Below are positions 8,943-31,285 of a stretch of 49,904 nt of DNA, in pieces. The stretch spans positions 1 to 49,904 of the forward strand of contig JBGPIA010000026.1 in the NCBI GenBank assembly GCA_041484665.1, given 5' to 3'. Positions within the stretch are counted from its first letter, which is position 1. Each line of letters opens with the position of its first letter. A model generated the notes under the pieces. It saw only the letters and a program-made list of their open reading frames with translations. It searched no databases and had not been told where the DNA came from. This DNA is from Candidatus Krumholzibacteriia bacterium. Lineage in GTDB: Bacteria; Krumholzibacteriota; Krumholzibacteriia; JAJRXK01. The translations under genes and the position numbers were made by a program.

Positions 8943-8989
8943 CGCGGCGCTTCGGTCCGCGCCGCATCGTTCGCAGCGCGTTGCACCGC

Positions 8990-9124
8990 GCGTCGGGCCG
9001 CGTCGTGCGCCGTGCGTCGGGCCGCATCGTGCGCCGTGTGTCGGGTCACGTCGTGCGCCGTGCGTCGGGCCGCATCGTGCGCCGCGCCTCCGGCCGCACC
9101 GTGCGCTGCGCGTCGGGCCGCGTC
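8990..9124. repeat. 24-bp degenerate tandem repeat, about 5.5 copies
   Basis: gcgtcgggccgc(g/a)tcgtgcgccgt units between convergent genes. Confidence 0.85.
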
Positions 9125-10939
9125 TCAGGCGGGGGGCGGCAACCCCGGCTGCGGCTCGATCTTCAGGTGCACGTGCAGCGCGTAGTCGGACAGCTGCGTC
9201 TCGAACGTCTCGGCCAGCGCGGAGTTCTCGTTGAGCGCGTTGGCCCGCAGCACCAGATCACCTTCGAATGCCTGGGGCAGCGGGTTCAGATTCGGCAGCG
9301 GACCTCCTGACGCGGCCAGCGACGTGGAATGGATGTGCCCGTCGGGGTGGGGCTTGGAGAGCCACTCGAGCCGGCCCAGTGGCCAATTCTGGAAATTGAG
9401 CGTTTCCCACATCCTCGCCAGGACTGAGGTGATGATGTCCTCCGACAGCGCGGGATTCTCGATCTCCTGCCAGGTGATGCGGCGCCCGTTGCTCCAAGCA
9501 GCCGTGCGGGCCTGCAGCGTCTGCCGGTAGAAGACGTCGCCGACCGGGTCCTCCTCGTTGCCGTGGCTGGAGATGTGAAGCGTGTCGGTGTCGGCCAGGA
9601 ACAGCTCCACGGTCCAGCCGATGGGGATGGCTACGCCCGGCTCGATGTCCTCCACCGGCAAGCGCGTCCACCAGCGTCCGTTCACGCCTACGCGCAGCAG
9701 CCATTCCTCGGTCGGACCCTCCATTTCTGGGATATCCAGGGGTCCCGTGCGCAGGGGGTGCGTGCGGAGCGCGTCGACGTGGGAGAAGTGGAGGGTGACC
9801 TTGCGCACTCGACGCGCTTGCGCCAGATCCGGGTCTGGCCAGCCCAGCGAGATCATCACCCCGTAGTTCTCGACCTGCGGCGGCAGGAGAGTGAGCGGGA
9901 TCGTCACGCGCGCTTGGCGCGGGATTGCCGCATCGGGCGGCCAGGGCTCGATGCGCGGCTGCGCGTGCGCCAGGGCCAGCAGGTTCTGCTCGTTGCCAGG
10001 GTCGTGCCCGAAGAAGCGCCAGTGGACCAGGAACGGAGAACGCAAGCCGATGCTGTACACGTTGCTTCCGGATGCCGCGCCCATATCCAGGGGATAGACC
10101 GGCGGCTCCAGCCCATCGGGAGGATCGGGCAGGTCGACGAGGAACGTGTAGTCGCGGTCGTTGATGCGCGGCCAATCCACATACCCGCCTCGCCGGCAGG
10201 TGAAGAAGGTGAACTGTGTCGCGGGAACGAAGAGAGCATTCTCGCGGAACTTGAAGCCCTCCGTGCGCAACGTCGCCATGGCCTTGACCGGGTGCAACTC
10301 GGTGCGATGGCGCCTCTGGGTCTCGGGTGGGTTGGGGTTGTTGGGATCCAGGCTGGCCGAATGGCCGCAATCGTAGATCCAGCGCCCCGTAAGCCAGACC
10401 TTCTGCCCGCGTTGGGGCCAGCCCCAATCGGCGGCGCTGCGGGGATCGGCCCCGTGGTCGTAGTACCCCCCGGGGACGGGCGCTCCGCGGAGCCCCTGCG
10501 CGAAGTTGCCCGTGTCCCACTCGCACTCCAGCGTCTCGGAGGGGCCCAGGTTGTGTCCGGCTTCGTCGAACTGTGCGTTGCCGCGACCCCGCAGGTAGAC
10601 GTACGGCGGCTCGGGGATAACGTGGAAATTCCAGTCGTACCAGACGTGCCAGTTCAACAGCGGCGCGTCGGTCCAGGTCGTAAAGCTGTTCTCCAGCAAG
10701 CCCTCGAGCTCGTGCTCCGCATTTGCGGCCACGGGATCGCCGCGCTTCACCACGACCCACGATGGCGTCAGCACGCGCATCTCCGTGTCGAACGGGCCGC
10801 TGACGCTGCTTGCGAGCCGGCAGCCGGGTAGGTAGCCGGGCTGGCCGAACGTGCCGCGCTCCCATCCGTTTCCGTCGGCCGGCGTCGTGGGCAGGCCGCT
10901 GGGAGCTGGAAACCGTTGGAAGCTCTTGAGTGCCGTCAT
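9125..10939 (-). CDS. Hypothetical 604-aa Trp/Pro-rich protein
   Basis: Long ORF with protein-like composition; GGAG RBS; motifs GRWIYDCGH and TELHP. Confidence 0.8.
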   Translation of the reverse strand: MTALKSFQRFPAPSGLPTTPADGNGWERGTFGQPGYLPGCRLASSVSGPFDTEMRVLTPSWVVVKRGDPVAANAEHELEGLLENSFTTWTDAPLLNWHVWYDWNFHVIPEPPYVYLRGRGNAQFDEAGHNLGPSETLECEWDTGNFAQGLRGAPVPGGYYDHGADPRSAADWGWPQRGQKVWLTGRWIYDCGHSASLDPNNPNPPETQRRHRTELHPVKAMATLRTEGFKFRENALFVPATQFTFFTCRRGGYVDWPRINDRDYTFLVDLPDPPDGLEPPVYPLDMGAASGSNVYSIGLRSPFLVHWRFFGHDPGNEQNLLALAHAQPRIEPWPPDAAIPRQARVTIPLTLLPPQVENYGVMISLGWPDPDLAQARRVRKVTLHFSHVDALRTHPLRTGPLDIPEMEGPTEEWLLRVGVNGRWWTRLPVEDIEPGVAIPIGWTVELFLADTDTLHISSHGNEEDPVGDVFYRQTLQARTAAWSNGRRITWQEIENPALSEDIITSVLARMWETLNFQNWPLGRLEWLSKPHPDGHIHSTSLAASGGPLPNLNPLPQAFEGDLVLRANALNENSALAETFETQLSDYALHVHLKIEPQPGLPPPA

Positions 10940-11834: not shown

Positions 11835-12321
11835 CCGGATCCGGTCGCGTGATCGTTGATTCGCCTCAGCAGCCGCGCCGGCCGCCCATGCGGGCCGTCG
11901 CTCCCAAGCTGCAACAACCCGGGCACGCAGTCCGCTGGCCGTCTGGGAAACGTCGTAAGCACCCCCAGGCCAGTTGGTGCGGCTGATCTGCTGGTCGAGG
12001 CGGGGGCAGCTGGCGGGTGGAGAATGGCACGGGACCCGTGGTTTGCTGTGGGTGTGCAGCCCTGCAGCCGTCCCGGGGACTCCTGTGCGCATCCCGATCC
12101 GTCTCCTCATCCGTGTCCTGCGTCCGAAAGCTCGTCGGCGTCGACCACGCGCCCAGCCACGCACACGACCACGCAGCCCTCCGACCTCTGGCTGGAACCC
12201 TGGTTCGCGCCGTGCGACTAATATGTAGGAAGGCCCCGCTCCGATGGCCGAGGCTCGTCTGCGGCTACCGCCGTCGGATACGCCCGCGCGACCTCTCTCT
12301 CTTGCGCAGGAGTCCTTTGCC

Positions 12322-13748
12322 ATGCGCCCCTCGATTTGCTTCCTGCCGCGTCGCGTCGTGCGCCCACGACGGGGCGCCGCCGCTTGCGCAAGCCTCGCCC
12401 GTTGGGCGGGTGTCGCGGCAACCGCACTGCTGCCGCTCCTGGCCAGCACCGCCCACGCCGGCGCTGAGCCGGTCGTTCATTTCGCGCCGTTCTACGAGTA
12501 TGTCCAGGAGGCAACGCCTTCGATTGCAGTGCCGGTCGCGATCTCCTCAGCCGCCACCGGCTCCGTGGGAGTGGCCTACACGACGGCCGACGGTTCCGCC
12601 CACGCCGGGAGCGACTATGTCGCCAAGAGCGGCTTTCTGTCCTGGTCCGCTGGCGACGCTTCGACGAAGAACATCTTTCTCAACATCATCAACGATGATG
12701 TGCCCGAGACCTACGAGCAATTCGATCTCATTCTTACCTCCGGGGATGGCGTCACCGTTGGCAAGCCTGACACGGCAACGGTGTACATCTTCGACGACGA
12801 CACCATCATCGTCCCCACGGTCTCCTTCGTCGTGCCGCCTGGACTGCCGACCAACACCTTCGGATATCACCTCTTGTACGGCGATGCGACCGTCGGGCTC
12901 GATCTGCCGGTCCGCGTGTTCAACGTGACGTCATGGCCGTTCACGGTGCCCTACACGATTGCGGGCGATCCGCAGACTCATGAGATGGTATTCCAGCAGG
13001 ACGAGTTCGAGAAGCCGATCCCCGTACCCGGAATCGAGGTCCCCGCGGGCCAGGTTGCGACGGCGCGTCTGGTATCTCTGGGGCAGCGAGCCAAGCGGGG
13101 CGGCAGTTCCTTCTCGGATATCGTCGCCTTGCTCGCAGATCCCCGTACCGGCACTCAGAGCTCGCTTGAGTGTCTGTGGGGCTTCATATGTTTGATGTTG
13201 GTGGATGTGGACTACAACTACTGTGGATTTGGCGGAAACACGAGCTCTCCCGGAGCCGGCGGGGCCGGAGGCACGACAGGGGTCGCAGCATCTGATCGAG
13301 CGGGCTCCACCGATCCGACGACCACGCTTCAGCGATACCGTGACGAGATCCTGGCGCCCACGCCGGTCGGGCAGTACTACATCCGCCTCTACAAACAGCT
13401 CAGTCTGGATGCAGAGGCGGCCGCGGTTCGGCAGCCGACATTCGTCTTCGAGACCATCTCCGCCCCGCAGGAATGGGTCGCCGGCCTCGGTGCGTTGGTC
13501 GATGGAGCCGGCGATGGCCTCGTCATCTCGCAGCAGATGGTGGACGATCTATACTCGGTCGTCACGACGCTCGGAGGCAATGGACCCCAGCGTTCGCTGA
13601 CGCCCTGAACAGCGAATGGGTGCGCTTGCGGGTGTCGATCCTGCCGGGTCACACCATGAACGAATTCCAGGTACAGATCGAAACGCTGGGGGGCCGCGTG
13701 CCCGCTGCGGAACCCTCCTGGGGGTCGCTGAAGTCGAGTTTCAAGTAG
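12322..13748 (+). pseudogene. Secreted Calx-beta domain protein with CFI-box-like segment and SWGxLK tail; apparent 1-nt frameshift near 13585
   Basis: Signal peptide; Calx-beta VAYTTADGSAHAGSDY...IINDDVPETYEQF; LQRYRDEIL..T.VG.YY..LY; frame stops at 13608 while another frame continues PAFADALN...PSWGSLKSSFK to 13748. Confidence 0.7.
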
Positions 13749-14363: not shown

Positions 14364-15281
14364 ATGTCCGCGCTCGTGGCGACCCTGATTGCGGCCGCCC
14401 TCTGCTCTGCTACCGGTGTGTTCGCCGCAGCCGACGCCGCGAAGCCCGGGCCCGCCGACCTTTCGCGACCTCCGTCGACCGACCTTTCGCGACCTCCGTC
14501 GACCGACCCTTCGCGACCTCCGTCCGCCGACCTTTCCCCGCACGCAGTCGCCAGCCTCGCCGCCCAGGCGTTCAACGGCTTGCTTCTGCCCGCCTCCACA
14601 GCACTCATCAAGACGAAATATGACGAGCAGGTGGCTGAGGTGGCAGTCGAGGTTGGCTCGCGCGTATCGGCGGGGCAGACGCTGCTGCGTCTGGTGGACG
14701 ACGAGCAACGGGTGACCCGCGACCGCGCGGCCGCGCTGACCGACCGTGCCCGGGCCGAGCTCAAGCGGCTCGACGCGTTGCGCAAGAGCGAAGGGACCAG
14801 CGACCAGCTGCTCGAGCAGGCGCAGACCGCCCTGCGCGTCGCCGAAGCCGACCTGCAACTTGCCGAGATCCGCTTCAAAGAGCGCACCATCAAGGCGCCC
14901 TTCACGGGCATCGTTGCCGAGCGCTATGTAGACCCGGGTGCTTCGGTGCAGGAGGGCGATCCGTTGGTCCGCGTGACGGCGGTCACACCGCTGCGCCTGG
15001 AGGCGCTGCTGCCCGAAGAGATGCTCTCGCGCATGCGCGGCCACGCCCGCGTCGAGGTCTCCCTCACCGCGCCCGACACCGTGCTCGTCCTTCCCGTCCG
15101 CCTCGGCACGGTGCTCGTCGACCCGGCCAGCGGAACGTTCCCGCTGCACATCACCATCGACAACACCCAGGGCCGCCTGACCCCCGGTGCGAGCTGCACG
15201 CTGCGCATCCTGCCGGCGCAGGCCGGCGTGCCCGGGGGCTCGACCGCACCGCCGGCGACGACCGCCGATCGGTCCCCATGA
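14364..15281 (+). CDS. RND/HlyD-type membrane fusion (periplasmic adaptor) protein
   Basis: Signal peptide, lipoyl halves VEVGSRVSAGQTL and IKAPFTGIV, coiled hairpin, LTPGA; GGAGG RBS. Confidence 0.9.
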   Translation: MSALVATLIAAALCSATGVFAAADAAKPGPADLSRPPSTDLSRPPSTDPSRPPSADLSPHAVASLAAQAFNGLLLPASTALIKTKYDEQVAEVAVEVGSRVSAGQTLLRLVDDEQRVTRDRAAALTDRARAELKRLDALRKSEGTSDQLLEQAQTALRVAEADLQLAEIRFKERTIKAPFTGIVAERYVDPGASVQEGDPLVRVTAVTPLRLEALLPEEMLSRMRGHARVEVSLTAPDTVLVLPVRLGTVLVDPASGTFPLHITIDNTQGRLTPGASCTLRILPAQAGVPGGSTAPPATTADRSP

Positions 15282-17347
15282 CCTCGCGCCCCCCTCTCAA
15301 GCTGCGCGACGATCTGGTCGTACGCCGCCGCGTGTTCGGCGGCGAGGTGCGGTACGTGGTGAAGGACCCGCTGAGGCTGGACTACTTCACCATCGATCAG
15401 GTGAGCTATACGCTGCTCTCCTGCTGCGATGGCAAGCGCGACCTGGCGCAGCTCACGGAGCTGGCCCAGGGATTCTTCCCGGACATGGGCCTCGACCCGC
15501 TCAGCCTGCTGGGCTTCTTCGAGAACTACCGCAAGTTCCATTTCTTCGAGGACGCCTGGGAGCGCAACACGATGCTCATCGAGCGGCGGCGCACCGACCG
15601 CTCGCGCGCCCTCAAGAAGGCCTTCGCCAACCCCCTGGAGATCCACCTGCCCGCCTGGAATCCGGACCGCTTCTTCGACCGCATCGTCAAGCCGCTGCGC
15701 TTTCTGTGGACCCGTCCAGCGATGCTGGCCTACACGCTGATCTTTGTGCTGGCGATGTACGTATCGCTGACGCACCGCCGGGAGTTCGCGCTGCCCGTGG
15801 GTCAGCTGTACGTGATCCAGGGCAAGGCGTTGGTGGGGCTGGCCGCGCTGTGGTTCATCCTGCTGTTCTCCGTCGTGCTGCACGAGTGCGGCCACGGGCT
15901 CACCTGCAAGCACTACGGCGGCGCGGTGAACCGCATGGGTTTTTTGTTCCTGTACTTCAACCCGTGCATGTTCTGCGACGTGACGGAGGCCTATTTCTTC
16001 GACAACAAGAATCACAAGCACTTCGTCACGCTCGCGGGGGGCATCGTCGACCTGATGACCGCCTCGCTGGCGACGTTCATCTGGTTCTTCACGTCACCGG
16101 ATCTTTTCCTCAATCAGGTCGCCCACCGCGTGGCGCTGTTCAACGGCGTCACCGGGATCATGGTGAACTTCAACCCGCTGATGAAGTACGACGGCTACTA
16201 CCTGTTGAGCGACCACGTCGAGATGCCCAATCTGCGCGGTGACGCCTTCCGCTTCGTGGGCAATCGCATCCGCGTGCTGCTGCGCTTGCCCCACGAGCAG
16301 GAGCTCTACACCCGCCGCGAGCGCAAGGTGTACTGGACCTACGGCCTGCTGGCGCTGGGGTACTCGGTGTTCGTGCTGACGTTCATCTACCTGTTCGTGA
16401 GCCGCTGGGTGGTGGGGCACTACCGCGCGCTGGGCTGGGTCCTGGCCGCAGCGCTGCTGGTGTTGATGGGCAAACGCTACTTCCTGGGTGCCGGCCGCTT
16501 CGCACGCTTCTTCGCCCTGGACAAGGCCGGGCACTTCCGCCGCTTCCGCTGGGGGTACGTCGGCGGTGGTCTCGCGCTGCTCGCGGCACTCATGCTGGTA
16601 CCCATTCCGCGGCACGTGCGCGGCGAGCTCGTGTTGCGTCCGGGTCGAGAGGAAGTGTTGCGTGCGCAGGAGAGCGGCACGATCGACGCGGTGCTGGCCG
16701 ACGAGGGACAGTGGGTGGAGGCCGGCACCGCGGTCATGACGCTGCGCGACGAGACGGTGGCGCTGGAGCGCGCGGCGGCCAAAGCGGCGGGAGCCGGCTC
16801 GCGGCAGCTGCAGGCGGCCGCTCTGGCGTCGGTGGACGCCCCGCGCGCCGCGGCCTTCGGCGCGCAGGCCGCCGGAAGCGCCGCTCTCGAGCGCTACAGT
16901 GCCTCGCGCGAGCAGCGCCTGCGGGCTGTCGCCCCGGCGGGGGGCACGGTCCTCACGCCGCGCCTGCGCGAGCGAGTCGGCGCGAAGGTCGCCGCGGGGG
17001 ATACGCTGTGTGAGCTGGGCGACCTGCGCAGCTTGCGCGCCGAGGTCCTGCTGGACGAGCGGCTGATGGGGATCCTCGACGCTTCGGGTCAGGTCGAGGT
17101 ACGCACCTACGCGCTGCCCGGCCGCGTCGCCCGCGGCCACGTCGAGAAGGTTGCCCCGGCGTCCGACGACAGCCGTGCCGGAGAGGCGCGTCGCCTCTAC
17201 CGTGTGCTGGTGAGTCTGGACAACCCCGACGGCCTGCTGCGGCCCGGCATGACCGGCCGCGCACGCTTCGACGCAGGCGCCACCAGTGCGCTGGGCCATC
17301 TCGTCGGCAGTGCCGCCCGGGTGCTGCGCATCGATTTCTGGATCTGA
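15278..17347 (+). CDS. PqqD/RRE-like N-domain, M50 site-2 zinc metalloprotease and HlyD-type MFP fusion
   Basis: N-terminal YVVKDP..DYF...LL.CCDGKR; HECGH; NFNPLMKYDGY; several TMs; LRPGMTGRA; ATGA coupling to previous gene. Confidence 0.88.
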   Translation: MTSRPPLKLRDDLVVRRRVFGGEVRYVVKDPLRLDYFTIDQVSYTLLSCCDGKRDLAQLTELAQGFFPDMGLDPLSLLGFFENYRKFHFFEDAWERNTMLIERRRTDRSRALKKAFANPLEIHLPAWNPDRFFDRIVKPLRFLWTRPAMLAYTLIFVLAMYVSLTHRREFALPVGQLYVIQGKALVGLAALWFILLFSVVLHECGHGLTCKHYGGAVNRMGFLFLYFNPCMFCDVTEAYFFDNKNHKHFVTLAGGIVDLMTASLATFIWFFTSPDLFLNQVAHRVALFNGVTGIMVNFNPLMKYDGYYLLSDHVEMPNLRGDAFRFVGNRIRVLLRLPHEQELYTRRERKVYWTYGLLALGYSVFVLTFIYLFVSRWVVGHYRALGWVLAAALLVLMGKRYFLGAGRFARFFALDKAGHFRRFRWGYVGGGLALLAALMLVPIPRHVRGELVLRPGREEVLRAQESGTIDAVLADEGQWVEAGTAVMTLRDETVALERAAAKAAGAGSRQLQAAALASVDAPRAAAFGAQAAGSAALERYSASREQRLRAVAPAGGTVLTPRLRERVGAKVAAGDTLCELGDLRSLRAEVLLDERLMGILDASGQVEVRTYALPGRVARGHVEKVAPASDDSRAGEARRLYRVLVSLDNPDGLLRPGMTGRARFDAGATSALGHLVGSAARVLRIDFWI

Positions 17348-17361
17348 TCGCGTTCCCAAGG

Positions 17362-19722
17362 ATGACGTCCATGCGCGAGAACCGCCAGCCCCTCGGCGAC
17401 ACGAGCAACGCGCCGGCCTCTGCCGGGCAGCGCCAATCCCACTTGCGTGATCAGCAGCTCGCCGACCTGTACACCGAACTGGCGCGCAGCGCCACACGGC
17501 TGATGGTGGTCCACGAGGCGGGGCGCATCCTCAGCTCGACCCACGATGCCGAGCAGCTCGCGCAGGGGCTCTTATCGGTCATCGCCGAGGCGGTCTTCGC
17601 CGGCTCCGGCTGCGTGGCGCGCCTGCGCCAGGACCAGCTGGACATCCTCGCCACCGTGGGGCTGGAAGAGCCGGAGGTCGATGCGCTGGCGACCAGCCCG
17701 CGCGAAGCCTCGATCCTGTTCACGGTTGCCGACGAGCGATGCGTGATGGGACGCGATGAGCTCCTCGCGCGCTTCGGCGGTGTGCGTTCGCCAGCGCGAG
17801 GGAACGGTAGGCGGGCCGTGGATCGAAAGGCCGGCGCCGGCTCCGATGGAGGCGCGGAATTGGAAGGGAATCCCTCCACCGCCGCCTCTGCCGGCATTGC
17901 TGGGGCGACGATCGATGACCCGGGGCTCGCCGTCCTCCAGGAAGAAGCGCCCCCCGAGCCCGGCGAGCAGGAGTGGAATCCTCCGGATGAGGAACCGTGG
18001 GCGCCTCCCGACGAGGAGCCAGTGCCAGGCGAACCAGAACCGGACGAACCCGGTTTCCGCGAGGCCAGGCCCGACGCGCTGCTCGAGCCCGGCGCGCTCG
18101 AGCCCGGCCTGCTCGAGCCCGGGGCGTTTCAGCCCGCCGCGCTCGAGGGGGGCGAAACTGGCGCCGCGGCCATCGATGCGAGCTTCGAGCTGTACATCCC
18201 GCTGGAGATCGAGGATCGGGTGCTGGGGGTCGTCGCGTTGGGCCGCCGCGTCGACGGAGCCGCCTTCGGCGCCGAAGATCGCCAGCTCGCCGGCTCGCTG
18301 GCAGCGCACCTCGCGGTCGCGCTCGAGAGCGCGGCCCTGTTTGCGGACAAGGAGCGGCGCATCGAGCAGCTCAACGTGCTGCTGCAGCTCAGCAAGGAGA
18401 TCACCAGCACCCTCGACCTGGAGCGCGTGCTGGCCACCATCGCGCAGATGATGGGCATGGTGGTTCCCAACCGGCGCGCCGTCGTTGCGCTGGTGAGCGG
18501 CGGCAGCGGCGGTGTCGCCATCCGTGCCTCCTCCGAGCAGGGTTTCGACGCCCGCGCGGCCAAGGCCGATCCGCTCCTGCCCTGCCTGGTGTGGGCCCAC
18601 GGGGCACGCCAGGGTGTCAACGTCAGCCGCGCGCAGCTCGCCGCCGACCCGCAGGCATCCGGTCGTGATGTGCTGCTGCCGTATCTGGAGCGCGATGGCG
18701 GGCCGCGCGGCCTGTCGATCCAAGCGTTGGAGGACGATCAGGGGGTGCTCGGCCTGCTGGTGATCGAGAGCGATGCCGACCAGCCGCCGGTGGATGACGA
18801 GCAGGACGAGCTCGTTACGATCCTCGCCAATCAGACGACGGTCGCCCTGCGCAACGCCGAGCTCTACCAGCGCATGCCGATGATCGGGGTGCTCCAGCCG
18901 CTGTTCCAGAAGCGGGCTGGTGCCGGAAGCCGCCGCCAGCTGCTGCGCCGCCTGGGCGTGGCCGCCGCCATCGCGGCCCTGGGCCTGCTGGTGCCGCTGC
19001 CGGCTTGGGTGTCAGGCGACGCCTTCCTGCGCCCCGGCACGCCCGTCGCGCTGCGCGCGGAAACTGCGGGCATCGTCGAGCGGGTGCTGGTGAACGAGGG
19101 CGATCGCGTGAAGGCGGGGACGCTGGTGGCGACTCTGCGCGACGACGAGATCACCTCGCAGCTGGAGCAGGCGCGCGCCTCGATCCAGCGCGTGCGCGCC
19201 GAGGGCGCCCGAGCCCGCAGCGCCGCCGACCTGGCGACCTACCGCGCGCGCGAGGCCGAGCTGCTGCAGCTGCAGGAGCGGGAGCGCTACCTTAGCGCCG
19301 AGCTCGGCCGTGTCCGCGTCGTGGCGCCCATCGATGGCGTGGTGCTCACGCCGCGCGTGGAGCTGCGCCGGGGCGAGCAGCTCGGGCGCGGGGAGGTCTT
19401 TGCCGAGCTGGCCGACCTCTCGACCATGGAAGTCGACGTCACCGTGCCCGAGACGGACATCCGGGGCGTGGCAGAGGGGGCATCCGCTCGCCTGAAGGTG
19501 CACGCCTACCCGGGGCGGACGTTCCGCGGGAAGGTGCTGCGCATCGCCCCGCGCGCCGATGCCGCCGCCGACTTCCGCGTCACGCTGCTCGTGGACAACG
19601 CCGACGGAGCGCTGCGACCGGGAATGACCGGCCGCGCCCACGTGCGGATCGGCCCGCGGCCGATCCTGCAGTCCTTCCTGCGGCCGGCGCTGCGGGCTGT
19701 GCGGATGAAGCTGTGGATCTAG
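17362..19722 (+). CDS. Two-GAF-domain membrane fusion protein (GAF-GAF-TM-HlyD)
   Basis: GAF motifs VLGVVALG and LANQTTVALRNAELY; TM; VNEGDRVKAG, VVAPIDGVV, LRPGMTGRA. Confidence 0.88.
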   Translation: MTSMRENRQPLGDTSNAPASAGQRQSHLRDQQLADLYTELARSATRLMVVHEAGRILSSTHDAEQLAQGLLSVIAEAVFAGSGCVARLRQDQLDILATVGLEEPEVDALATSPREASILFTVADERCVMGRDELLARFGGVRSPARGNGRRAVDRKAGAGSDGGAELEGNPSTAASAGIAGATIDDPGLAVLQEEAPPEPGEQEWNPPDEEPWAPPDEEPVPGEPEPDEPGFREARPDALLEPGALEPGLLEPGAFQPAALEGGETGAAAIDASFELYIPLEIEDRVLGVVALGRRVDGAAFGAEDRQLAGSLAAHLAVALESAALFADKERRIEQLNVLLQLSKEITSTLDLERVLATIAQMMGMVVPNRRAVVALVSGGSGGVAIRASSEQGFDARAAKADPLLPCLVWAHGARQGVNVSRAQLAADPQASGRDVLLPYLERDGGPRGLSIQALEDDQGVLGLLVIESDADQPPVDDEQDELVTILANQTTVALRNAELYQRMPMIGVLQPLFQKRAGAGSRRQLLRRLGVAAAIAALGLLVPLPAWVSGDAFLRPGTPVALRAETAGIVERVLVNEGDRVKAGTLVATLRDDEITSQLEQARASIQRVRAEGARARSAADLATYRAREAELLQLQERERYLSAELGRVRVVAPIDGVVLTPRVELRRGEQLGRGEVFAELADLSTMEVDVTVPETDIRGVAEGASARLKVHAYPGRTFRGKVLRIAPRADAAADFRVTLLVDNADGALRPGMTGRAHVRIGPRPILQSFLRPALRAVRMKLWI

Positions 19723-19820: not shown

Positions 19821-20180
19821 TCAGCGCCCCAGCCGCTGGGCCAGCCGCGCACGCGCTTCCGGCGCGTCGGCGCACACGTTCAGGATCGCCTCCAGCTGGA
19901 CCACCTGCACCACGCGCAGCACCACATCGGGCACCGCGAACACGGCCAGCGAGCCGCCCAGCTGCTGGCAGCGCGTGAGCAGCCGGATGAGGATGCCGAT
20001 GCCGGCGCTGCTCATGGATTTGATGCCGCTCATGTCCAGCAGCAGCGAGGGTGACTGCTCAGCAATCCGCGATTCCAGGCTCTCCCACAACTGGGTCGAG
20101 CCGAGAGCGTCCAACCGGCCGATCGCCGTGGCCAGGAGCGCGCCCGCCATCTCGGGGTCGGGTCCGCAGGTGACACGCAT
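19821..20180 (-). CDS. STAS domain protein (anti-sigma factor antagonist)
   Basis: GRLDA, LLLDMSGIKSMSSAGIGIL; GGAGG RBS. Confidence 0.88.
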   Translation of the reverse strand: MRVTCGPDPEMAGALLATAIGRLDALGSTQLWESLESRIAEQSPSLLLDMSGIKSMSSAGIGILIRLLTRCQQLGGSLAVFAVPDVVLRVVQVVQLEAILNVCADAPEARARLAQRLGR

Positions 20181-20207: not shown

Positions 20208-20358
20208 TGTGGAAATGCTCAGGCGCAGGACCGGCGCCTTCCGCACATTCTGAGGAATTCTACAGTCGCGGGCCGACCCGCGCTGCGTCGACACTGTATC
20301 AACTGCTTGGCGGACAATGGAATAGAGATCTTGAAGTGCCGCCGGAACGCGGCTTGCC
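20208..20358 (+). promoter_or_regulatory. Sigma54 promoter: two UAS-like boxes, IHF site, -24/-12 element
   Basis: TGTGGAAATGCTCA 20208 and TGAGGAATTCTACA 20251; TATCAACTGCTTG 20297-20309 matches WATCAANNNNTTR; CCGGAACGCGGCTTGC with GG 20344-45 and GC 20356-57. Confidence 0.75.
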
Positions 20359-20452
20359 TTACTCACCGGCGAAGGAGTCGATCCCGGCAGTGCCCTCCGA
20401 GCGGGCATGCCCCCGGTCTCAGCAAAGCCCAACTCGAGGAGACAGGAACCCC

Positions 20453-21061
20453 ATGACCAACCGTACCATCACCCGCCCCACGTCGAATCCGGCTACGGTG
20501 ACGACGACCGACACCACCACCGAGAGCCGCGGGGAGTTCGGCCCCGGCTACGACGTGTCCAGGCTGACCCCCGCGCAGGTCGCGTCGCTTTCTCCCAGGC
20601 AGGTCCTTCAGCTATCGCCCCGGCAGATCGCCGCTTTCTCGCCCCGGCAGATTGCGTCGCTCTCTCCCCGGCAGATCGCCTCGCTTGCCCCGAAGCAGGT
20701 CCTGTCGCTGGCGCCCAAGCAGATCGCGTCGCTCGCGCCGAAGCAGATCGCCAGCCTGAGCCCCAAGCAGATCGCGTCACTCGCGCCGAAGCAGATCGCG
20801 TCGTTGGCGCCCAAGCAGATCGCCTCGCTTGCCCCGAAGCAGGTCCTGTCGCTGGCGCCAAGGCAGGTGGCCTCGTTCGCTCCGAAGCAGATCCTGGCGT
20901 TCAGCCCCAAGCAGATCGCGTCGCTGGCGCCCAAGCAGGTGGCCTCGCTGGCCCCCAAGCAGATCGCGTCGTTGGCACCGAGGCAGATCGCAGCGCTCAG
21001 TCCCAAGCAGATCGCCCAGCTGTCGCCGGCCGCGGTCGCCAAGTTGCCCACCAGCATGTGA
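20453..21061 (+). CDS. 202-aa protein: 37-aa Thr-rich leader plus 20 tandem octapeptides (L/F)(A/S)P(K/R)Q(I/V)xx
   Basis: Purine-rich RBS (GAGGAG/AGGA); repeats 20564-21043 with synonymous codon variation; own promoter and downstream hairpin. Confidence 0.88.
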   Translation: MTNRTITRPTSNPATVTTTDTTTESRGEFGPGYDVSRLTPAQVASLSPRQVLQLSPRQIAAFSPRQIASLSPRQIASLAPKQVLSLAPKQIASLAPKQIASLSPKQIASLAPKQIASLAPKQIASLAPKQVLSLAPRQVASFAPKQILAFSPKQIASLAPKQVASLAPKQIASLAPRQIAALSPKQIAQLSPAAVAKLPTSM

Positions 21062-21113: not shown

Positions 21114-21139
21114 GCGGGGGGCCCCGATGGGCCCCCCGC
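21114..21139 (+). terminator. Strong hairpin after the repeat-protein gene
   Basis: gcggggggccc-cgat-gggccccccgc, perfect 11-bp stem, weak U tail. Confidence 0.6.
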
Positions 21140-21339: not shown

Positions 21340-23376
21340 CTACGTCCACCGCCCCGACTCGAACTCCTGGGCCAGGCGCTCCAGATGGCGTGCGTAGCAG
21401 GCGGGGATCTTGCTGAAGCGCGCGCGCAAGGAAGCCGACCGTCGCTGCGGTGACCGGCCGCCATGGCGCAGCGTCGCCAGCGCGTCGCCCAGCAGGCGGT
21501 CGATCTTCCCCTCCACACGACGCGTCGCGCCCGTGCCGCCGGCCAGAGCGCGCGCGGCGGTGCCCACGTCCCAGCGCGCCTCCGCAAGCGCCCTGAGGCA
21601 CTCGCCCTGCAGGTAGTAGGTGAGTCCGCTGCGCGAGACGACCGGGACGCCGCGGCGTCGGGCGGTGAAACGCTTGCGCTCAGCGAGCGCACGCTCCGCC
21701 AGGGCGATGTTGAAGTGGTGGCGGCGCAGCTCCTGCAGGACCCACGGCCCGACCTCGTCCCTGCGGCGGGGTCCCTCGTGGCGGGCTCCAGCCACTCGAT
21801 CGTCGCCGTGGTTCGCTCGATCCTCGCTGTCGGTCCCGCGGTGCTTACCGTCGGCGGTTTGGCGCTCTCCATCGTTCCCGCGGCCCTCACCGTCGGCTGT
21901 TCGGGGCTCACCATCGTTCCCGCGGCCGTCGCCTTCGCCGTCCTCGTCGAGCACGGGGGGTTGGGCCACGCGGAAGCGCGAGAACACCGCGATCACGTGG
22001 TGGTCCTCGATCTCGTCGGCGCCGCGTGCCTGGATCAGCAGCCCGCGTACGAGATTCTGCAGCTCGCGCACGTTGCCCGGGAACGAATAGACGCAGATGC
22101 GGCGCAGTGCGGCCACGCTCACCTTTGGGCGCTGCCGCGACGCCTCGGCGGCGTGCTGATCGAGGATCGCCTCGATCAGCAACGGAATGTCCTCGCGGCG
22201 TTCACGCAGCGGTGGGATGCGGATGGGGAAGACGTTGAGTCGGTAGAACAGGTCCTCGCGGAAGCGGCCGGCCTCGACCTCCTGCAACAGGTCGCGGTTG
22301 CTGGCGGCGATCAGGCGGCTCGCGCAGTCCACCGGCTTCTCGCCGCCGACCGGCGTGAACACTCCCTCCTGCAGCACGCGCAGCAGCTTGACCTGTGACT
22401 GGGGCGGCAGCTCGCCGACCTCGTCGAGGAAGACCGTCCCGCCTCGCGCGCGCTCGAACACCCCGTGATGGCCGCGCACCGCACCGGTGAAGGCGCCTTC
22501 CACGTGCCCGAACAGCTCGCTCTCCAGAAGAGGCTCGGGGATCGCGCCGCAGTTGACCGCCTCGAAGGGCGCGCCCGCCGCGGTGGCGACCTCGTGGATG
22601 ATGGAGGCGAGCAATTCCTTGCCAGTGCCCGACTCGCCCTCCAGCAACACCGGATAGTGCGTGGTCGCTACGCCCACCAGGTCGCTGAGGATGGTGGAGA
22701 TCACGGAACTGCGTCCCACGAAGCGCCGTAGTGGCGCATGGATCTCCTGCGGGTCGATGCTGTCGCGCATCGGCATCAATGCCACGGGGGCGCCGCGCGC
22801 GGGACGCGCGGCGGTCTCGCCGTTCGACGCATCGAGGGAGTGGCTGAGGATCGTGAAGAGGCCTGCCAGCGTCGTGAGCAGCCCCTGCTCGTCGGGGCCG
22901 TAGGGATACGCGCTGACGCGCTCACCCAGCAGCAGCAAGCCTGTCGGCCCTTCACGTCCGTCCAGCACGACGAGCGCGCGCGGGTCGAGCGCTGGCAGAA
23001 TCATCGCGATCCGCCGGCGCCAGGCGGCGGCGTCCGTGGCGGAAAGCAGGCGCACGGCCGCGCCCTCGCGCAGGTCCGCGCGCGCGGGCGCCTCGAGCAC
23101 CACCTCGCGCTGCTGGACGGGATCCTTCCAGGCGCCGAAGGCCTCTACCAGCAGCGCGCGGTCGCGGCCGCTGAGCTCCAGCACCGCGCCGCTGCCAGCC
23201 TCCGTGCTGCCCATGGCCGAGAGCAGGAGCTGGCGCAGCAAGCGATGCGGAGCATCGCCCGGACGGAAGCGGCAGCCAACCTCGACGATGGCGGCGATGG
23301 ACCGCAGGCGCCGGCGGAACACGTCCTGCGCCAAAGGCGCACGGTCGGGCCGGGTGGGGCGTCGCTGCGGAATCAT
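21340..23376 (-). CDS. Sigma54-dependent enhancer-binding protein (GAF-like, AAA+, extended HTH region)
   Basis: GESGTGKE, ESELFGH, GAFTGA, FLDEVGE, FREDLFYRL, FPGNVREL. Confidence 0.95.
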   Translation of the reverse strand: MIPQRRPTRPDRAPLAQDVFRRRLRSIAAIVEVGCRFRPGDAPHRLLRQLLLSAMGSTEAGSGAVLELSGRDRALLVEAFGAWKDPVQQREVVLEAPARADLREGAAVRLLSATDAAAWRRRIAMILPALDPRALVVLDGREGPTGLLLLGERVSAYPYGPDEQGLLTTLAGLFTILSHSLDASNGETAARPARGAPVALMPMRDSIDPQEIHAPLRRFVGRSSVISTILSDLVGVATTHYPVLLEGESGTGKELLASIIHEVATAAGAPFEAVNCGAIPEPLLESELFGHVEGAFTGAVRGHHGVFERARGGTVFLDEVGELPPQSQVKLLRVLQEGVFTPVGGEKPVDCASRLIAASNRDLLQEVEAGRFREDLFYRLNVFPIRIPPLRERREDIPLLIEAILDQHAAEASRQRPKVSVAALRRICVYSFPGNVRELQNLVRGLLIQARGADEIEDHHVIAVFSRFRVAQPPVLDEDGEGDGRGNDGEPRTADGEGRGNDGERQTADGKHRGTDSEDRANHGDDRVAGARHEGPRRRDEVGPWVLQELRRHHFNIALAERALAERKRFTARRRGVPVVSRSGLTYYLQGECLRALAEARWDVGTAARALAGGTGATRRVEGKIDRLLGDALATLRHGGRSPQRRSASLRARFSKIPACYARHLERLAQEFESGRWT

Positions 23377-26433: not shown

Positions 26434-26844
26434 ATGGACTCCGCGGACCCGCTCGACCCGGTCGACTCCGTCAATCGGATCTTCCTTGTTGCCGCCTGCA
26501 TCCTTGGCTTCCTCGGCGTGACGGCCGCTGCGTTTGGCGCTCACGCGCTGGCGCAGCGCGTGACGGCGCAGCGACTAGCCGCCTTCGAGACCGGCTCGCG
26601 CATCCAGCTGTTCCACGCCCTGGCGCTGCTGGCGGCCACGGCCATCCGCGCGCGCTGGCCAGGGCGTGCGGCCACCGCAGCTTGCTGGCTGTTCGTGGCG
26701 GGGATCGTGCTCTTCGCCGGCAGCCTCTACCTGCTCGTGCTGCTCGATCTCCCGGCCCTGGGCGCAATCACGCCCGCCGGGGGCGCTTGCTTGCTGGGGG
26801 GCTGGCTGGCGCTGGCGATCGCCGTCGGGCGCGCTCCGCGCTGA
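26434..26844 (+). CDS. DUF423 membrane protein
   Basis: AAFGAHAL, QLFHALALL, LFAGSLY, GAITPAGG. Confidence 0.9.
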   Translation: MDSADPLDPVDSVNRIFLVAACILGFLGVTAAAFGAHALAQRVTAQRLAAFETGSRIQLFHALALLAATAIRARWPGRAATAACWLFVAGIVLFAGSLYLLVLLDLPALGAITPAGGACLLGGWLALAIAVGRAPR

Positions 26845-27559
26845 CCGGTCCCGGCCCGCCGGCTCCTTCCTGCGCGTCGACCAGAGCGCGCGCCTGCGCG
26901 AAGACCGCGTTCCACATCGCCCGCGTCAGCTTGCCGGTATTGGTGTTCTGGCGGCTGGGATGGTAGCTCTGGAGCACCGGCGGCAACCCCGGCAGGCGGA
27001 CGAGCTGCCCGTGGGCGAAGGCGGGACGGGGACGCGGGACCGTGCCGCCCAACTGAGCAGCGGCCCGCAGCCACGCTTCCCACGCAATCCGCCCCAGCAC
27101 GACCACGAGCTGCGGGCGCAGCAGCTCGATCTCGCGCACCAGGAAGGGGCGGCAACGGTCCAGCTCCACGGGCGCGGGCTTGTTGCCGGGTGGCGCGCAC
27201 CGCGCCGCAGCGCTGATGACGCAGTCGCGAAGCTGCAGGCCGTCGTCTCGCGCGGCCGACCCGGGCTGCGTGGCGAAGCCGAAACGATGGAGCGCCGCGT
27301 AGAGCCAACTCCCGGAGCTGTCGCCGGTAAACATGCGCCCCGTGCGATTGGCGCCGTGGGCGGCGGGAGCGAGCCCGATAACCAGCAGGCGCGCGGGCGG
27401 ACGCCCGAAGGCGGGGACCGGCTTGCCCCAGTAGGTCCAGTCCCGGTAGAGCGGACGGCGCTCCCGCGCAACGCGCGCGCAATAACCGCGCAGCCTTGGG
27501 CAGCGGTCGCACGCGATGACCTCGCGCTGGATCTGCTCGAACGCGTCGGTGCGCCGCAT
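26768..27559 (-). CDS. Uracil-DNA glycosylase, family 5 (UdgB-like, Fe-S)
   Basis: CDRCPRL, GLAPAAHGANRTGRMFTGD, RCAPPGNKP, YHPSRQNT. Confidence 0.92.
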   Translation of the reverse strand: MRRTDAFEQIQREVIACDRCPRLRGYCARVARERRPLYRDWTYWGKPVPAFGRPPARLLVIGLAPAAHGANRTGRMFTGDSSGSWLYAALHRFGFATQPGSAARDDGLQLRDCVISAAARCAPPGNKPAPVELDRCRPFLVREIELLRPQLVVVLGRIAWEAWLRAAAQLGGTVPRPRPAFAHGQLVRLPGLPPVLQSYHPSRQNTNTGKLTRAMWNAVFAQARALVDAQEGAGGPGPVSAERARRRSPAPASPPASKRPRRA

Positions 27560-27757
27560 GCGGCAAAACTACCACAGCATGCGGCACGGGCAGGCTGCTT
27601 TCGGGGGCCCACAGCGCGAGCAAGCGCCTGTCCGGACGCTGCGTGGCGATGGTACACTCAGCTGGTGACCGCGGCGTGCCCGAAGCCTGCCCGTCCGCGG
27701 CCTTTCCTGCGCCCGTTCGCCCCAGCCTTGACCCAGAAACCACGCCGAGGGAACGCG

Positions 27758-30700
27758 GTGCGCCTGCCGGACCCGCGAATTTCCAGCCACCCGGACGCCG
27801 ATCCGCACGGGTTACCCGGCGCGCTGCGGCACGCGGCGCACGCGTTGGGCACACTCCTGCTCGCTGCTGGATGCCTCGCCGCCTCGACGGCTGTGGCTCC
27901 GGCGCTGGCGCAGATGGCCATGGATCCTGGCCTGGCCCGCTCGCTCGCGGCCAAGGGAGCGTTGCAGGGCGTGCAGCGCCAGCTGCTGGCGGCGCGCGAT
28001 CGCGGCTTCTTCGACACCAGCCCGGCACCACCGCCTCTGCTTGCCGCGCTGCCGGGGGCGACGCTTCGCAAGCAGTCGACGTGGCGAGCGCTGGTGCTGC
28101 TGGTGGACTTCTTCGACGCGCCGGCCACGGGCCGCTTCAGTCAAAGCGACTACAACCGCCTGCTCTTCAGCACCGGGATCGTGTCCACCGGGAGCCTGAC
28201 CGAGTTCTACCTCGAGAACAGCTACGGCAGGCTACAGATCATCGGGGACGTGGTGGGATGGCTGCGGATGCCGCACCCGCGGAGCTGGTACTGCAATACC
28301 GACGGCCTGCCGGGCACGGCCGACGACTACGGTCTCGGACCCCTTCCACACAACGCGCAAGCTCTCGCCATCGATGCAATCGCCGCGGCCGATGCGTCCG
28401 TGGATTTCCAGAACTACCGCAATGGACGCTCGCGGGTGGACGGCGTGTTCGTCGTGCACGCCGGCGCGGGCGCCGAGCAGAGCGGCAGCCCCAACGATCT
28501 GTGGAGCCATCAGTATTCGGCCAACACCACGACGGCCGACGGTGTGGAGGTCGGCTCGTACACCATGGAGCCCGAGTACCGCGCGGGGCAGGCGCTCACC
28601 GACATCGGCGTCTTCTGCCACGAGTTCGGCCACGCGCTCGGGGGGATGCCCGACCTGTACGACCTGGACGGTTCCAGCGGCGGCATCGGTAACTGGTCCC
28701 TCATGTCCACGGGCGTCTGGAACGACGGTGGCCACACGCCGGCGCACTTCGACGCCTGGTGCAAGATCAAGCTTGGATTCCTCGCGCCGGTGGCTCTGCA
28801 GGGCGAGGTGTTCGCGCTGCAGATCGCGCCCATCGAGCTGCAGGACGTGGCGTACAAGATCCAGCGCCCGGCGCACGCGTCCAAGGAGTACCTGCTGATC
28901 GAGAACCGGCGACGGCTCGGATTCGACGCCGCTCTTCCGGGAGAGGGACTGCTGGTCTGGCACATCGACGAGGCCGTCACGAACAATCGCAACGAAGCCT
29001 GCGGGCCCGCGCCGTTCCATCCGCTGGTGCGCCTGATCGAGGCCGATGGCCTCTGCCAGCTGGAGGCGGGAGGCCGCGGCGATCTCGGCGATCCCTTCCC
29101 AGGCAGCTTCCACGTGCAGCGCGTCGATGACAGCACGACCCCCGGCCTGCACGCCTACAGCGGCCAGGCCACGGACCTCCTCCTGAACCAGATCACCGAG
29201 CTGGGCAACTCGACGCGGCTCGACGTGCTGTTCTCCAGCGTCCTCATCAACCGCGTGCCGCTGGATTTCCAAAGCGTCGCCGCCGCGCTGGCGGCCGCAG
29301 GGCCCGGGGACGAGGTGCGCATCCGCGCCGCAGAGCTCCAGACCGGCAATTTCATCGTACCGGCGGGCGTGACCCTCAGCGGTGGGTGGGATGCCGCCTA
29401 CCAGACCCAGGATCCGCTGAGCCCCAGCGTGCTGGTGGCCGGGGCCAGCGCGCCAGTGCTGCAGGTGAGCGGGGGTGCATCCACCACGGGGACGGGGCCC
29501 GTGGGGATCGACGACCTGATCGTGCGTGGCGGGTGGGGGTTGGAGCAGTACCTGCCCGAGCACCGTTATCTGGGCGGTGGGCTGCTGGTGCTCGGCGGGC
29601 AGGCGCGCGTCACGCGCTGCCGCTTCGAGAACAACGTGGCAGGCCCCAACGGGCTGCTCCCCGCGCGGGGCGGCGCCATCGCCGGCAGCGGGTCGGACCT
29701 GGCGGTGGAGGACTGCAGCTTCCAGGGCAGCCTTGCCAAGGAGGGCTGCGACCTCTTTGCCGAGGGCGCAAGCGTGCAGATCCGCCGCTGCACGTTCGCC
29801 GGGGCCACGGCGTACGTGCCCGTGACGGTGGAGACGCAGCGCGGCGGGGCCGTGCTCATGATCGGTGGCTCGCTGCTGGAGTTGGAGGACTGCATGTTGA
29901 CGGGGTATCGAGGCGTTGGCACCGGCGGCGCAATTTACGCTGGAGGCGTCGGCAGCCTGATCCTGCGCCGGTGCTCGGTCACCCAGTGCAACGCGCAGCA
30001 GGGCGGCGGCCTCTATGCCGCGGCGGCGAGCGTCGAGCTGCGCGACTGCGCTCTGGTCTCCAACGTGGCGGTGGGCGGCGGTAGCGGCGGTGGCGGTGGT
30101 GGTGGCGCCTATGTCTCGGGCGGGCAGCTCACCTGGATCGGTGGGAAGCTGCAGGACAACCACGCCGACTTCGCGGCCGGCGGGCGGATCGAGAACTCCG
30201 CACCGGGCTCTCGCCTCGAGGGGGTGCTGCTACGCGGAAACGTCGCGGCCGTATTCGCGGGTGGGCTCGCGCTCACCAACGGAACGGCCGCCGTGGAGCA
30301 CTGCGTATTCCACTCCAACCAGGGCCAGTACGCCGGAGGCGGCGTGTACGTCTTCGCCCCATCGCCCGTCACGGCGAGCACGGTGCGCGACTGCGTCTTC
30401 CTGCAGAACGCGCCCACGGCGGTCACCAAGGGCGGTGATGCGCCGCTGCTGCTGCTGTACAACCTGTACTGGGCCACGCAGGGCCCGCAGTCCGTGATGG
30501 GCACATCCGCAGGAGCCTTCGACCGTGAGCTGTCGCCGGGATTCGCCGACGCCACCGTGGGCGATTACCACCTTGTCTGGGGAAGCCCCGCGATCGACGC
30601 CGGCGATCCGGCCGCAGCGGCGGACTTCGACGGCAGCCTTGCGGATCTGGGGATCTACGGCGGATCCTACGACCCGGGGGACCGACCAGCGGTACCGCGG

Positions 30701-31285
30701 ACCACGCTGGCTGTGCCGGACTTCAGTGGGGTCCTGGTCCAGTGGAGCCCGTCCACCGTGGGTACACCGCAGGCCCAGGCCCGCGTCTACGGCCAGCCGA
30801 ACGCCCAGCATCTGCCGATCCCGGGCGAGCTGGTCGGCACCGTGACCGGCGCTGCGACGAGCTGGACGCACGTCTCGCCCCCACCGGCGCTGCGCTATCG
30901 GGTGCAGATCGTCGACGCGCAGGGCCGGGCAGGCGGCTTCGGCCCCGTGGCCACCGTCACCGCGACCGGCGCGCCGCCCGCGGTACGCGAGCCGGTTGTG
31001 GGCCAGCCGGCGCCAAACCCGTTCAATCCCGCCGCCGAAGTACGCCTGGAGCTGCCGCAGTCGCGCTGGGTCCGCGCGGAGATCTTCGATCCCGCCGGTC
31101 GCCGCGTGCGCTTGCTCGCCGACGCGCGAATGCCCGAGGGCACGGCGATCCTGCGCTGGGATGGGCGCAACGCGCAGGGCAGGGCCGTGGCCTCGGGGAG
31201 CTATCTGCTGCGCGTCGCACTCGCCGACGCCGGTGCGGGCGCACCGCAGACCACCGTCGTGCGACACCTGCTGCTGGTGCGCTGA
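27758..31285 (+). CDS. M6 (immune inhibitor A-like) metalloprotease with beta-helix repeats and C-terminal FlgD-Ig-like domain
   Basis: LVLLVDF, VHAGAGAE, IWSH-like LWSH, HEFGHALG.PDLYD, WSLMS.G, GLLVWHID; GGAI/GGGL repeats; PNPFNP...WDGRNAQGRAVASGSY; start approximate. Confidence 0.88.
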   Translation: MRLPDPRISSHPDADPHGLPGALRHAAHALGTLLLAAGCLAASTAVAPALAQMAMDPGLARSLAAKGALQGVQRQLLAARDRGFFDTSPAPPPLLAALPGATLRKQSTWRALVLLVDFFDAPATGRFSQSDYNRLLFSTGIVSTGSLTEFYLENSYGRLQIIGDVVGWLRMPHPRSWYCNTDGLPGTADDYGLGPLPHNAQALAIDAIAAADASVDFQNYRNGRSRVDGVFVVHAGAGAEQSGSPNDLWSHQYSANTTTADGVEVGSYTMEPEYRAGQALTDIGVFCHEFGHALGGMPDLYDLDGSSGGIGNWSLMSTGVWNDGGHTPAHFDAWCKIKLGFLAPVALQGEVFALQIAPIELQDVAYKIQRPAHASKEYLLIENRRRLGFDAALPGEGLLVWHIDEAVTNNRNEACGPAPFHPLVRLIEADGLCQLEAGGRGDLGDPFPGSFHVQRVDDSTTPGLHAYSGQATDLLLNQITELGNSTRLDVLFSSVLINRVPLDFQSVAAALAAAGPGDEVRIRAAELQTGNFIVPAGVTLSGGWDAAYQTQDPLSPSVLVAGASAPVLQVSGGASTTGTGPVGIDDLIVRGGWGLEQYLPEHRYLGGGLLVLGGQARVTRCRFENNVAGPNGLLPARGGAIAGSGSDLAVEDCSFQGSLAKEGCDLFAEGASVQIRRCTFAGATAYVPVTVETQRGGAVLMIGGSLLELEDCMLTGYRGVGTGGAIYAGGVGSLILRRCSVTQCNAQQGGGLYAAAASVELRDCALVSNVAVGGGSGGGGGGGAYVSGGQLTWIGGKLQDNHADFAAGGRIENSAPGSRLEGVLLRGNVAAVFAGGLALTNGTAAVEHCVFHSNQGQYAGGGVYVFAPSPVTASTVRDCVFLQNAPTAVTKGGDAPLLLLYNLYWATQGPQSVMGTSAGAFDRELSPGFADATVGDYHLVWGSPAIDAGDPAAAADFDGSLADLGIYGGSYDPGDRPAVPRTTLAVPDFSGVLVQWSPSTVGTPQAQARVYGQPNAQHLPIPGELVGTVTGAATSWTHVSPPPALRYRVQIVDAQGRAGGFGPVATVTATGAPPAVREPVVGQPAPNPFNPAAEVRLELPQSRWVRAEIFDPAGRRVRLLADARMPEGTAILRWDGRNAQGRAVASGSYLLRVALADAGAGAPQTTVVRHLLLVR

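Follow-up and report, generated by a model that had tools for sequence, protein, structure and literature searches.

A polycationic ALTTAQ-type repeat protein is the probable cargo of a neighbouring membrane protease and adaptor cassette

Introduction

Type I secretion brings together HlyB, HlyD and TolC, with an ABC ATPase and a C39-domain leader peptidase. A module of GAF-HlyD, M50-HlyD and HlyD proteins with no ABC component was described by Kamneva, Poudel and Ward (2015; PMC4452313), who proposed a function in secretion with the M50 protein as membrane pore and gave its role as unknown. That locus also carries a secondary SecA_DEAD gene. In the available passages of the paper there is no mention of a cargo or an RRE, nor of a STAS gene or control by sigma-54; its supplements may name cargo. 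A different use of a membrane protease is found in peptide maturation, where MpaP/DapP is the RRE-dependent intramembrane leader peptidase of daptides, as stated in the accessible part of the report (PMC10036551). Giant LEPRxLL proteins have been treated together with TolC and HlyD, and the M50 protein goes unmentioned in the portion of that preprint at hand (bioRxiv 10.64898/2026.03.19.712371). Our literature searches, which covered sources outside the subscription journals, found no published account joining RRE, M50 and HlyD.

Here we analyse a 49,904-nucleotide stretch of a Candidatus Krumholzibacteriia genome (the window) that encodes a small octapeptide-repeat protein, REP, beside a cassette of this kind. 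The cassette resembles the module of Kamneva et al. in its three HlyD-domain proteins, of which one also contains M50 and another GAF, and in lacking an ABC transporter; the window cassette differs from the published passages in having no SecA_DEAD gene, and is in this respect a SecA-less variant. It is a variant of a module known only from genomics. With type I secretion it shares adaptor (membrane fusion) proteins and a putative cargo without a Sec signal, and TolC adjoins distant cassettes; however, the locus has no ABC ATPase or TolC, has three adaptors, and carries a membrane zinc protease and not a C39 domain. With MpaP/DapP, as far as described in the accessible text, and with the epipeptide protease YydH/LiaK, considered by its NCBIfam model only, it shares an N-terminal RRE fused to a site-2 protease of the leader-removing kind. 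In contrast to these, the window protease scores below the family cut-offs, is fused to an adaptor domain and has no tailoring enzymes with it, and its putative cargo would be a folded 165-aa solenoid and not a short modified peptide.

Results

An RRE-protease and three adaptor domains precede the repeat gene

Three co-oriented genes on the forward strand make up the cassette. The first (14364..15281) matches the HlyD/RND type of periplasmic adaptor; it stands alone, and its N-terminus has a hydrophobic, signal-like stretch. The second (15278..17347), about 3 kb upstream of REP, joins a PqqD-like RRE, a site-2 (M50) protease, transmembrane helices and an adaptor domain, as judged from the motifs HECGH and NFNPLMKYDG, domain matches and fold. 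The third (17362..19722) is assigned by domain match to a GAF-GAF protein with one transmembrane helix and an adaptor domain. The first 95 residues of the M50 protein were modelled as a beta3-alpha3 domain (pLDDT 91) whose top fold matches are TbiB1, PqqD and TfuB1, at TM 0.5-0.65 and probability 1.0 with a best E of only 0.002. A profile search with this region ranked PqqD, TfuB1 and TbiB1 first, weakly, and Pfam PqqD matched 20 of 36 RRE-M50 homologues. The window protein is an RRE fused to a site-2 protease with both HExxH and NxxPxxxxDG, and these zinc-protease motifs are intact in it and in 43 of 43 homologous rows. Its nearest NCBIfam models are the daptide and YydH/LiaK maturation proteases, and both scores lie below the cut-offs (NF041824, 176 bits against 300; NF058609, 43 bits against 225). 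A predicted complex between the RRE alignment and the N-terminus of REP, modelled without controls, had a score of 0.23, with the mark at 0.32.

The first GAF domain of the GAF-adaptor carries an acidic, Pro/Glu-rich insert with short internal repeats (window 17900-18150, +) that reaches a net charge of -15 in 40 aa, a value attained by 3 of 915 filtered long ORFs of the genome. The corresponding stretch measures -14 to -20 per 40 aa in all six ALTTAQ-clade loci and -12 to -29 in seven loci of the clade with MAAKK-type peptides (described below) in which the gene is present. Two other clades, likewise with basic peptides, show ordinary values (-8 to -12).

No ABC ATPase turned up when the window was crudely scanned for motifs. 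SecA_DEAD has a single match in the genome (93.65% complete), on another contig, and about ten TolC-type genes (20 domain matches) are encoded, none of them on the REP contig. No tailoring enzyme occurs among the genes common to the window and the two loci with a whole cassette, L012 and L013, and a radical-SAM motif scan was negative in 20 of 20 loci.

Several other features were seen in the window. A Calx-beta protein with a weak CFI-box-CTERM match lies just upstream of the adaptor genes (12244-13608, +) and did not turn up in the other loci checked. Two long unannotated ORFs, the first OmpA/peptidoglycan-binding-like by eye, occupy 7047-10939 (+). An M6 peptidase, beta-helix and FlgD-Ig protein (26666-31285, +) probably starts well downstream of its listed ORF start, and a PilT-like ATPase (31717-33789, +) has a long A-D-K-A-type 4-residue repeat linker (Tandem Repeats Finder arrays at 32369-32539).

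REP is a leader followed by 20 octapeptide repeats

REP (20453..21061, +) is a 202-aa protein, recognised by its translation, its match to the ALTTAQ family PF20080, its AlphaFold model and homologues adjoining the same cassette. A 37-aa leader (20453..20563, +), of low pLDDT and with a maximum Kyte-Doolittle 12-mer of -0.33, is followed by 20 octapeptides of consensus L-A/S-P-K/R-Q-I/V-A-S (20564..21043, +) and, after repeat 20, by the 5-aa tail LPTSM. The start is backed by GAGGAG at 20436-20441, and homologues align from Met1. A Kyte-Doolittle scan of REP found no Sec-type hydrophobic stretch. Position 1 is L or F and position 6 is I or V in 20 of 20 repeats each; Pro3 is present in 20 of 20, Gln5 in 19 and K/R4 in 18, the two exceptions at position 4 being the first and last repeats, as in caps. 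The repeat region has no D or E and the pI of REP is 11.9. An earlier note on this DNA had counted 20 exact 8-mers with the same Pro3, Gln5 and K/R4 pattern and no acidic residues, and every one of these counts is confirmed on the translation.

The same note took codon variation between the copies as a sign of selection on the protein. Among same-residue codon pairs in the repeats 59% are identical (n=985), against 53% expected for independent draws from the codon usage of seven long ORFs in the window, and 19 of the 20 DNA units are distinct. Codon identity is near the independent-draw level, so synonymous sites are close to randomised while the protein pattern is kept. By the evidence of its sequence the repeat pattern is held at the protein level, and REP is a real, selected gene. 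The selection argument of the note holds, with one qualification: Tandem Repeats Finder detects the array in the DNA (period 24, 71% matches), which makes it a degenerate tandem repeat at that level as well. The genome has no second array of this type.

The leader is weakly conserved overall. R8-P9 is invariant in 5 of 5 aligned leaders and xxR/H-SFKRP is found in four homologues; the window leader reads TITRP and departs from the SFKRP consensus. One metagenome locus (L024) has a Lys-rich leader of another class on the same ALTTAQ tail.

The repeats belong to a known family and are predicted to form a solenoid

REP matches Pfam PF20080 (ALTTAQ) over 7 stretches at 85.7 bits, against a cut-off of 26.4, and its homologues score 35.8-118.7 bits, with four homologues above the curated cut-off. 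On this profile evidence the REP repeat is a member of the known ALTTAQ family and is not new. The nearest ESM Atlas clusters all carry PF20080, at scores of 0.86-0.88 that fall below 0.9 and are a lead only. Protein database searches gave 2 matches with REP and 29 with the REP alignment among 8,000 candidates scored. All but one were generic ALTTAQ proteins, whole or fragmentary, with 24-50% identity; the exception was a short non-ALTTAQ match at 60%. None had an informative name. We found no solved ALTTAQ family structure in structure searches and no paper using the word ALTTAQ in a literature search. Weak HMM matches to CSTF_C, holin, DNA polymerase psi and phage chaperones were rejected as low-complexity artefacts; no stretch passed.

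AlphaFold placed 20 helices of 5-6 residues at 8-residue spacing, with pLDDT 93-97 over residues 41-190, a confidence that the input, a single and very regular sequence, can inflate. We consider it very likely from this model that the repeats fold as a short-helix alpha-solenoid. The end repeats deviate in the complete REP homologues as they do in the window, and they may act like solenoid caps. The best Foldseek match of the model is mesothelin (PDB 8cx3, 7u9j; E 4e-5, TM 0.38-0.43). Both are solenoids of short helices; however, the TM is low, identity is 14-19%, and the VIA Z of 5.3 is below that of a phage receptor-binding protein (Z 7.2). The likeness is one of shared architecture and is not evidence of function. 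A wide structure search with the REP model gave no match at Z of at least 8, and a viral fold search nothing at TM > 0.35. The suggestion in the note of a narrow cationic solenoid gains backing from the PF20080 match, from the one short helix predicted per 8-mer and from mesothelin as best Foldseek match.

The comparison within the family shows a difference in charge. Five cassette-linked ALTTAQ tails carry +11.5 to +12.2 per 100 aa, whereas six giant ALTTAQ proteins, taken from metagenome loci, carry -2.4 to -6.3. The giants, hypothetical or annotated as 'heme utilization', share with REP the 8-residue register, Leu1, Gln5 and a hydrophobic residue at position 6. They are, however, acidic and have lengths of at least 1,600-3,200 aa, against 115-252 aa in the cassette-linked form. 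Pro3 occurs in 0-24% of the units of the giants and in 100% of the pattern-matched units of the cassette-linked form, and K/R4 in 2-9% and 82-100%, respectively. The flanking DNA of the six giant loci, which is limited in extent, showed no cassette gene. What is unusual in REP is the stand-alone cationic form together with its gene setting.

A conserved sigma-54 box precedes REP

The sequence CCGGAACGCGGCTTGCC (20342..20358, +), 111 bp before the ATG, matches 10 of 14 positions of the sigma-54 (-24/-12) consensus, scored on the pattern GG-N10-GC. Of the loci where a homology search revealed REP, six include upstream DNA, and all 6 have a box of 10-12/14 at 88-122 bp before REP. The background in the genome is 0.058 per 100 bp at 10/14 or better and 0.0011 at 12/14 or better. 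A candidate upstream activator site, TTCTGAGGAATTCTAC (20248..20263, +), was picked out by similar words in related loci: some 90 bp ahead of the box, the window, L012, L024 and L029 share a TTCTGnGGAAWT-type word, and inspection by eye shows one in L013 too. It has 1 match in the genome, with a pattern that was fitted to these same loci. The genome encodes rpoN. Sigma-70 promoter and terminator scans were blank. We consider it highly likely, from these sequence features, that REP is transcribed by sigma-54.

REP is flanked by two regulatory genes, each assigned by domain match. A STAS (anti-sigma-antagonist-type) gene (19821..20180, -), starting from the ATG at 20180, is divergent from REP and holds the same place in L012, L013, L029 and L066. 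A sigma-54-dependent AAA+ activator (21340..23376, -) is convergent on REP and adjoins it in L012, L013, L018 and L066; its extra N-terminal domain is GAF-like by eye and has no Pfam match. Between the convergent genes, 3' of the REP stop, lies a G+C-rich hairpin (21114..21139, +; folding z -2.7). It has no long U tract and received no call in the terminator scan. A hairpin after the stop was present in 4 of 4 loci folded, with z of -1.6 to -5.2 in the three homologues. The earlier note had been made without the known repeat family, the promoter and the cassette.

REP and the cassette occur together in other lineages

Six loci besides the window pair a cationic ALTTAQ protein with the three-adaptor cassette. 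A search of the genome collection with the M50 protein gave 3 loci. Two, L012 and L013, labelled Eisenbacteria, have the whole cassette and REP proteins of 206 and 252 aa, and the genome of the third has REP and the activator on another short contig. Among 13 metagenome loci REP is linked to adaptor genes in 2 (L024 and L029), and the other 11 hold other ALTTAQ-like proteins. The Eisenbacteria-labelled phylum has the RRE-M50 gene in 38 of 206 genomes and PF20080 in 4 of 206, and these 4 are exactly the 4 whose M50 protein is 63-67% identical to that of the window. Two transposase-like ORFs lie between the GAF-adaptor and STAS genes in one locus (L012:14383-17018). At L012:7650-8108 and L013:8990-9451 a universal-stress-type gene, together with a metal ABC uptake operon, comes before the cassette; the window has neither in this place.

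Within the window's phylum the REP query had a match in one of the 207 other genomes (L015), and this match was rejected as a homologue: its repeat is a different, charge-neutral LSPETIGR, seen as a period-8 protein fragment at a contig end of this same-class genome (L015:1522-1836, -). That genome gave adaptor-domain matches only to the GAF-adaptor query. PF20080 was not found in 60 class relatives, and the M50 gene has only 2 distant copies in 60 relatives of the window, with no REP in the fetched DNA. One class relative has an RRE-M50-adaptor gene followed by radical-SAM-like and TPR-like ORFs, by eye (L008:5840-15606, -), a candidate RiPP cluster. No genome is common to the two phylum sets, so the cassette in the window may have been acquired sideways.

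The RRE-M50 part is widespread, with 6,218 clusters at E<1e-10. Distant plasmid cassettes in Variovorax and Thalassospira, two of the three regions opened from 13 matches, adjoin TolC and giant repeat proteins; the third, from a Rhizobium plasmid, was uninformative on these neighbours.

The putative cargo slot holds basic products with unrelated tails

We fetched 40 regions around RRE-M50 matches and scanned 39, leaving out the 2.3-kb G360 (L052). The three-adaptor layout is found in 24 regions. A small basic gene lies behind a sigma-54 box in 19 of these, and in the remaining 5 the contig ends before the slot. One slot of the 19 (L066) holds an ALTTAQ protein with an SFKRP leader and Cys every 16 residues. 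In that gene (L066:2121-2729, +) every second repeat has Cys for Gln5 (PKCL/PKCF), a Cys ladder on the predicted solenoid and a possible disulfide or metal array. The other 18 slots, all Eisenbacteria, were located through the sigma-54 box scan, so their boxes are not independent evidence. They hold an unrelated repeat tail (ANLPKVAD, ATSRGTV-type, ERTLRP or TTARGV behind an MSKKLTPK-type leader) or no array (42-51-aa MAAKK-type peptides). Slot peptides are without a tandem array in nine loci, and L077 has a duplicated 7-mer only. All 24 tabulated slot products are net positive, at +0.04 to +0.36 per residue; the L068 tail is nearly neutral.

Four leader classes map to four protease clades in a quick tree of 30 proteases (SH-aLRT 99-100), a correspondence that is expected from shared descent alone. 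What is new is that one clade fills the slot with a uniformly cationic ALTTAQ protein, predicted to fold as a solenoid, and its sister clades with unrelated basic tails.

Tandem 42-51-aa basic paralogues with near-identical leaders and different tails occur in L075 (9747 and 10456, -), each with its own sigma-54 box, and in L081, where the two starts are separated by about 640 bp. In L085, L090, L092, L093 and L096 a second RRE-M50-adaptor subtype, which lacks the stand-alone adaptor, adjoins Gly/Ser/Lys-rich repeat ORFs. Two second-subtype loci have an LE.RIAP motif, which resembles the daptide leader ELExMEAP and LEPRxLL.

Discussion

REP is probably the cargo of the neighbouring membrane protease-export machine, with a tail swapped freely between bacterial lineages. 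We propose that the adjacent activator and sigma-54 would transcribe REP as its own short message, the promoter being conserved and its activity deduced. The repeats are predicted to form a narrow, capped, stiff polycationic alpha-solenoid rod of variable length with one Lys or Arg per 8 residues. The cytoplasmic RRE would bind the unstructured leader and the site-2 protease would remove it, as MpaP does for daptides; leader recognition and cleavage in this way are rather likely. The three adaptor domains and a TolC encoded elsewhere would then carry the rod across the envelope, and for passage through adaptors and a borrowed TolC we see the case as evenly balanced. In this same step, the weakest of the scheme, the GAF-adaptor may use its acidic loop to retain the basic cargo. 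Once outside, the rod would most likely be a surface or matrix protein that coats or cross-links polyanions (LPS, exopolysaccharide, extracellular DNA), though a polyanion-binding rod of this kind is put forward only tentatively. The tail would be a lineage-variable payload in which positive charge and leader class are conserved and the fold is not. Taken as a whole, recognition by the leader, clipping and export as a polycationic rod might or might not hold, with about equal chance.

The main difficulty of the export reading is energy. The cassette has no ATPase and a +19 cargo would move outward against the membrane potential, so no energy source is evident. An ATPase-free route can be imagined in which the RRE-guided site-2 protease serves as both leader peptidase and inner-membrane gate. 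What it would export, under sigma-54 control, are interchangeable polycationic repeat polymers (here an ALTTAQ solenoid) that act as recognition tags or surface fibres specific to each lineage, with the acidic GAF loop as a histone-chaperone-like cargo holder. We regard this scheme as speculative and doubtful.

The absence of an ATPase from the cassette and of a signal peptide from REP would also fit a cytoplasmic binder of nucleic acid or polyphosphate, acting in nucleoid condensation within a sigma-54 programme, with the membrane protease only degrading or sensing REP. All 24 tabulated slot products are basic, as such a role would want, and the short MAAKK products (42-51 aa) resemble histone-H1-like tails. 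However, three adaptor-domain proteins travel with REP, distant cassettes flank TolC and giant surface proteins, the L068 tail is nearly neutral and L066 has Cys every 16 residues. SPKK minor-groove motifs are S/T-P-K/R-K/R turns in a disordered chain. The SPKK-type reading offered in the earlier note is weak on this comparison, as position 5 is Gln in 19 of 20 units and S/A-P-K-Q starts a helix in the model and not an SPKK turn. REP may still bind polyanions, DNA among them, in a more general way. We consider an intracellular binder unlikely.

The conserved leaders with hypervariable tails, including the tandem paralogues of L075 and L081 that differ in their tails, might instead point to a lineage-specific cationic signal or membrane-active agent, formed by the clipped product or the leader itself, with feedback through the GAF, STAS and activator proteins. 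Sensor-type domains are present in the cassette, the nearest NCBIfam protease models are the daptide and YydH/LiaK maturation proteases, and daptides are cationic and membrane-active according to the accessible text (PMC10036551). Against this, a capped solenoid of 165-220 aa with a variable repeat number would be a costly signal, and no immunity-type gene is conserved in the loci read. Such an agent seems distinctly improbable.

Cleavage at the invariant Pro into linear or cyclic 8-mers, a multicore precursor as the note had also proposed, would suit the exact period, the nearby RRE-protease gene and the 6-, 7- and 8-mer tandem tails of other loci. Yet the units have no spacers, the end repeats are cap-like in every complete homologue, and the predicted fold is confident and continuous. 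Furthermore, no second protease, cyclase or radical-SAM gene is common to the window, L012 and L013, none was found by motif scan in 20 loci, and nine loci have no tandem array (L077 only the duplicated 7-mer). The precursor idea keeps some ground in the RRE-fused protease upstream and the slot of leader plus variable tail; as a source of 8-mer cores, given the lack of spacers, the cap-like ends and the lack of a tailoring enzyme, it is very unlikely. That REP is co-regulated with the cassette and is not its substrate might be suggested by the STAS gene, which in most RP-clade loci lies divergently between REP and the adaptors, and by the rearranged order in L066. This is scarcely credible when all 19 loci with enough DNA have an occupied slot, mostly directly behind the GAF-adaptor gene, and no other candidate cargo is conserved.

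For REP as the probable cargo, the wider interest lies in the M50/GAF/HlyD module, which is widespread and whose role was given as unknown in the passages of Kamneva et al. (2015; PMC4452313). A small, easily expressed and probably well-folded putative cargo with its own promoter opens leader binding, cleavage and ABC-less export to test, and the natural swaps of leader and tail are built-in controls. Within the ALTTAQ family REP is a minimal member free of Cys, well suited to structural work and perhaps usable as a scaffold for cationic nanorods.
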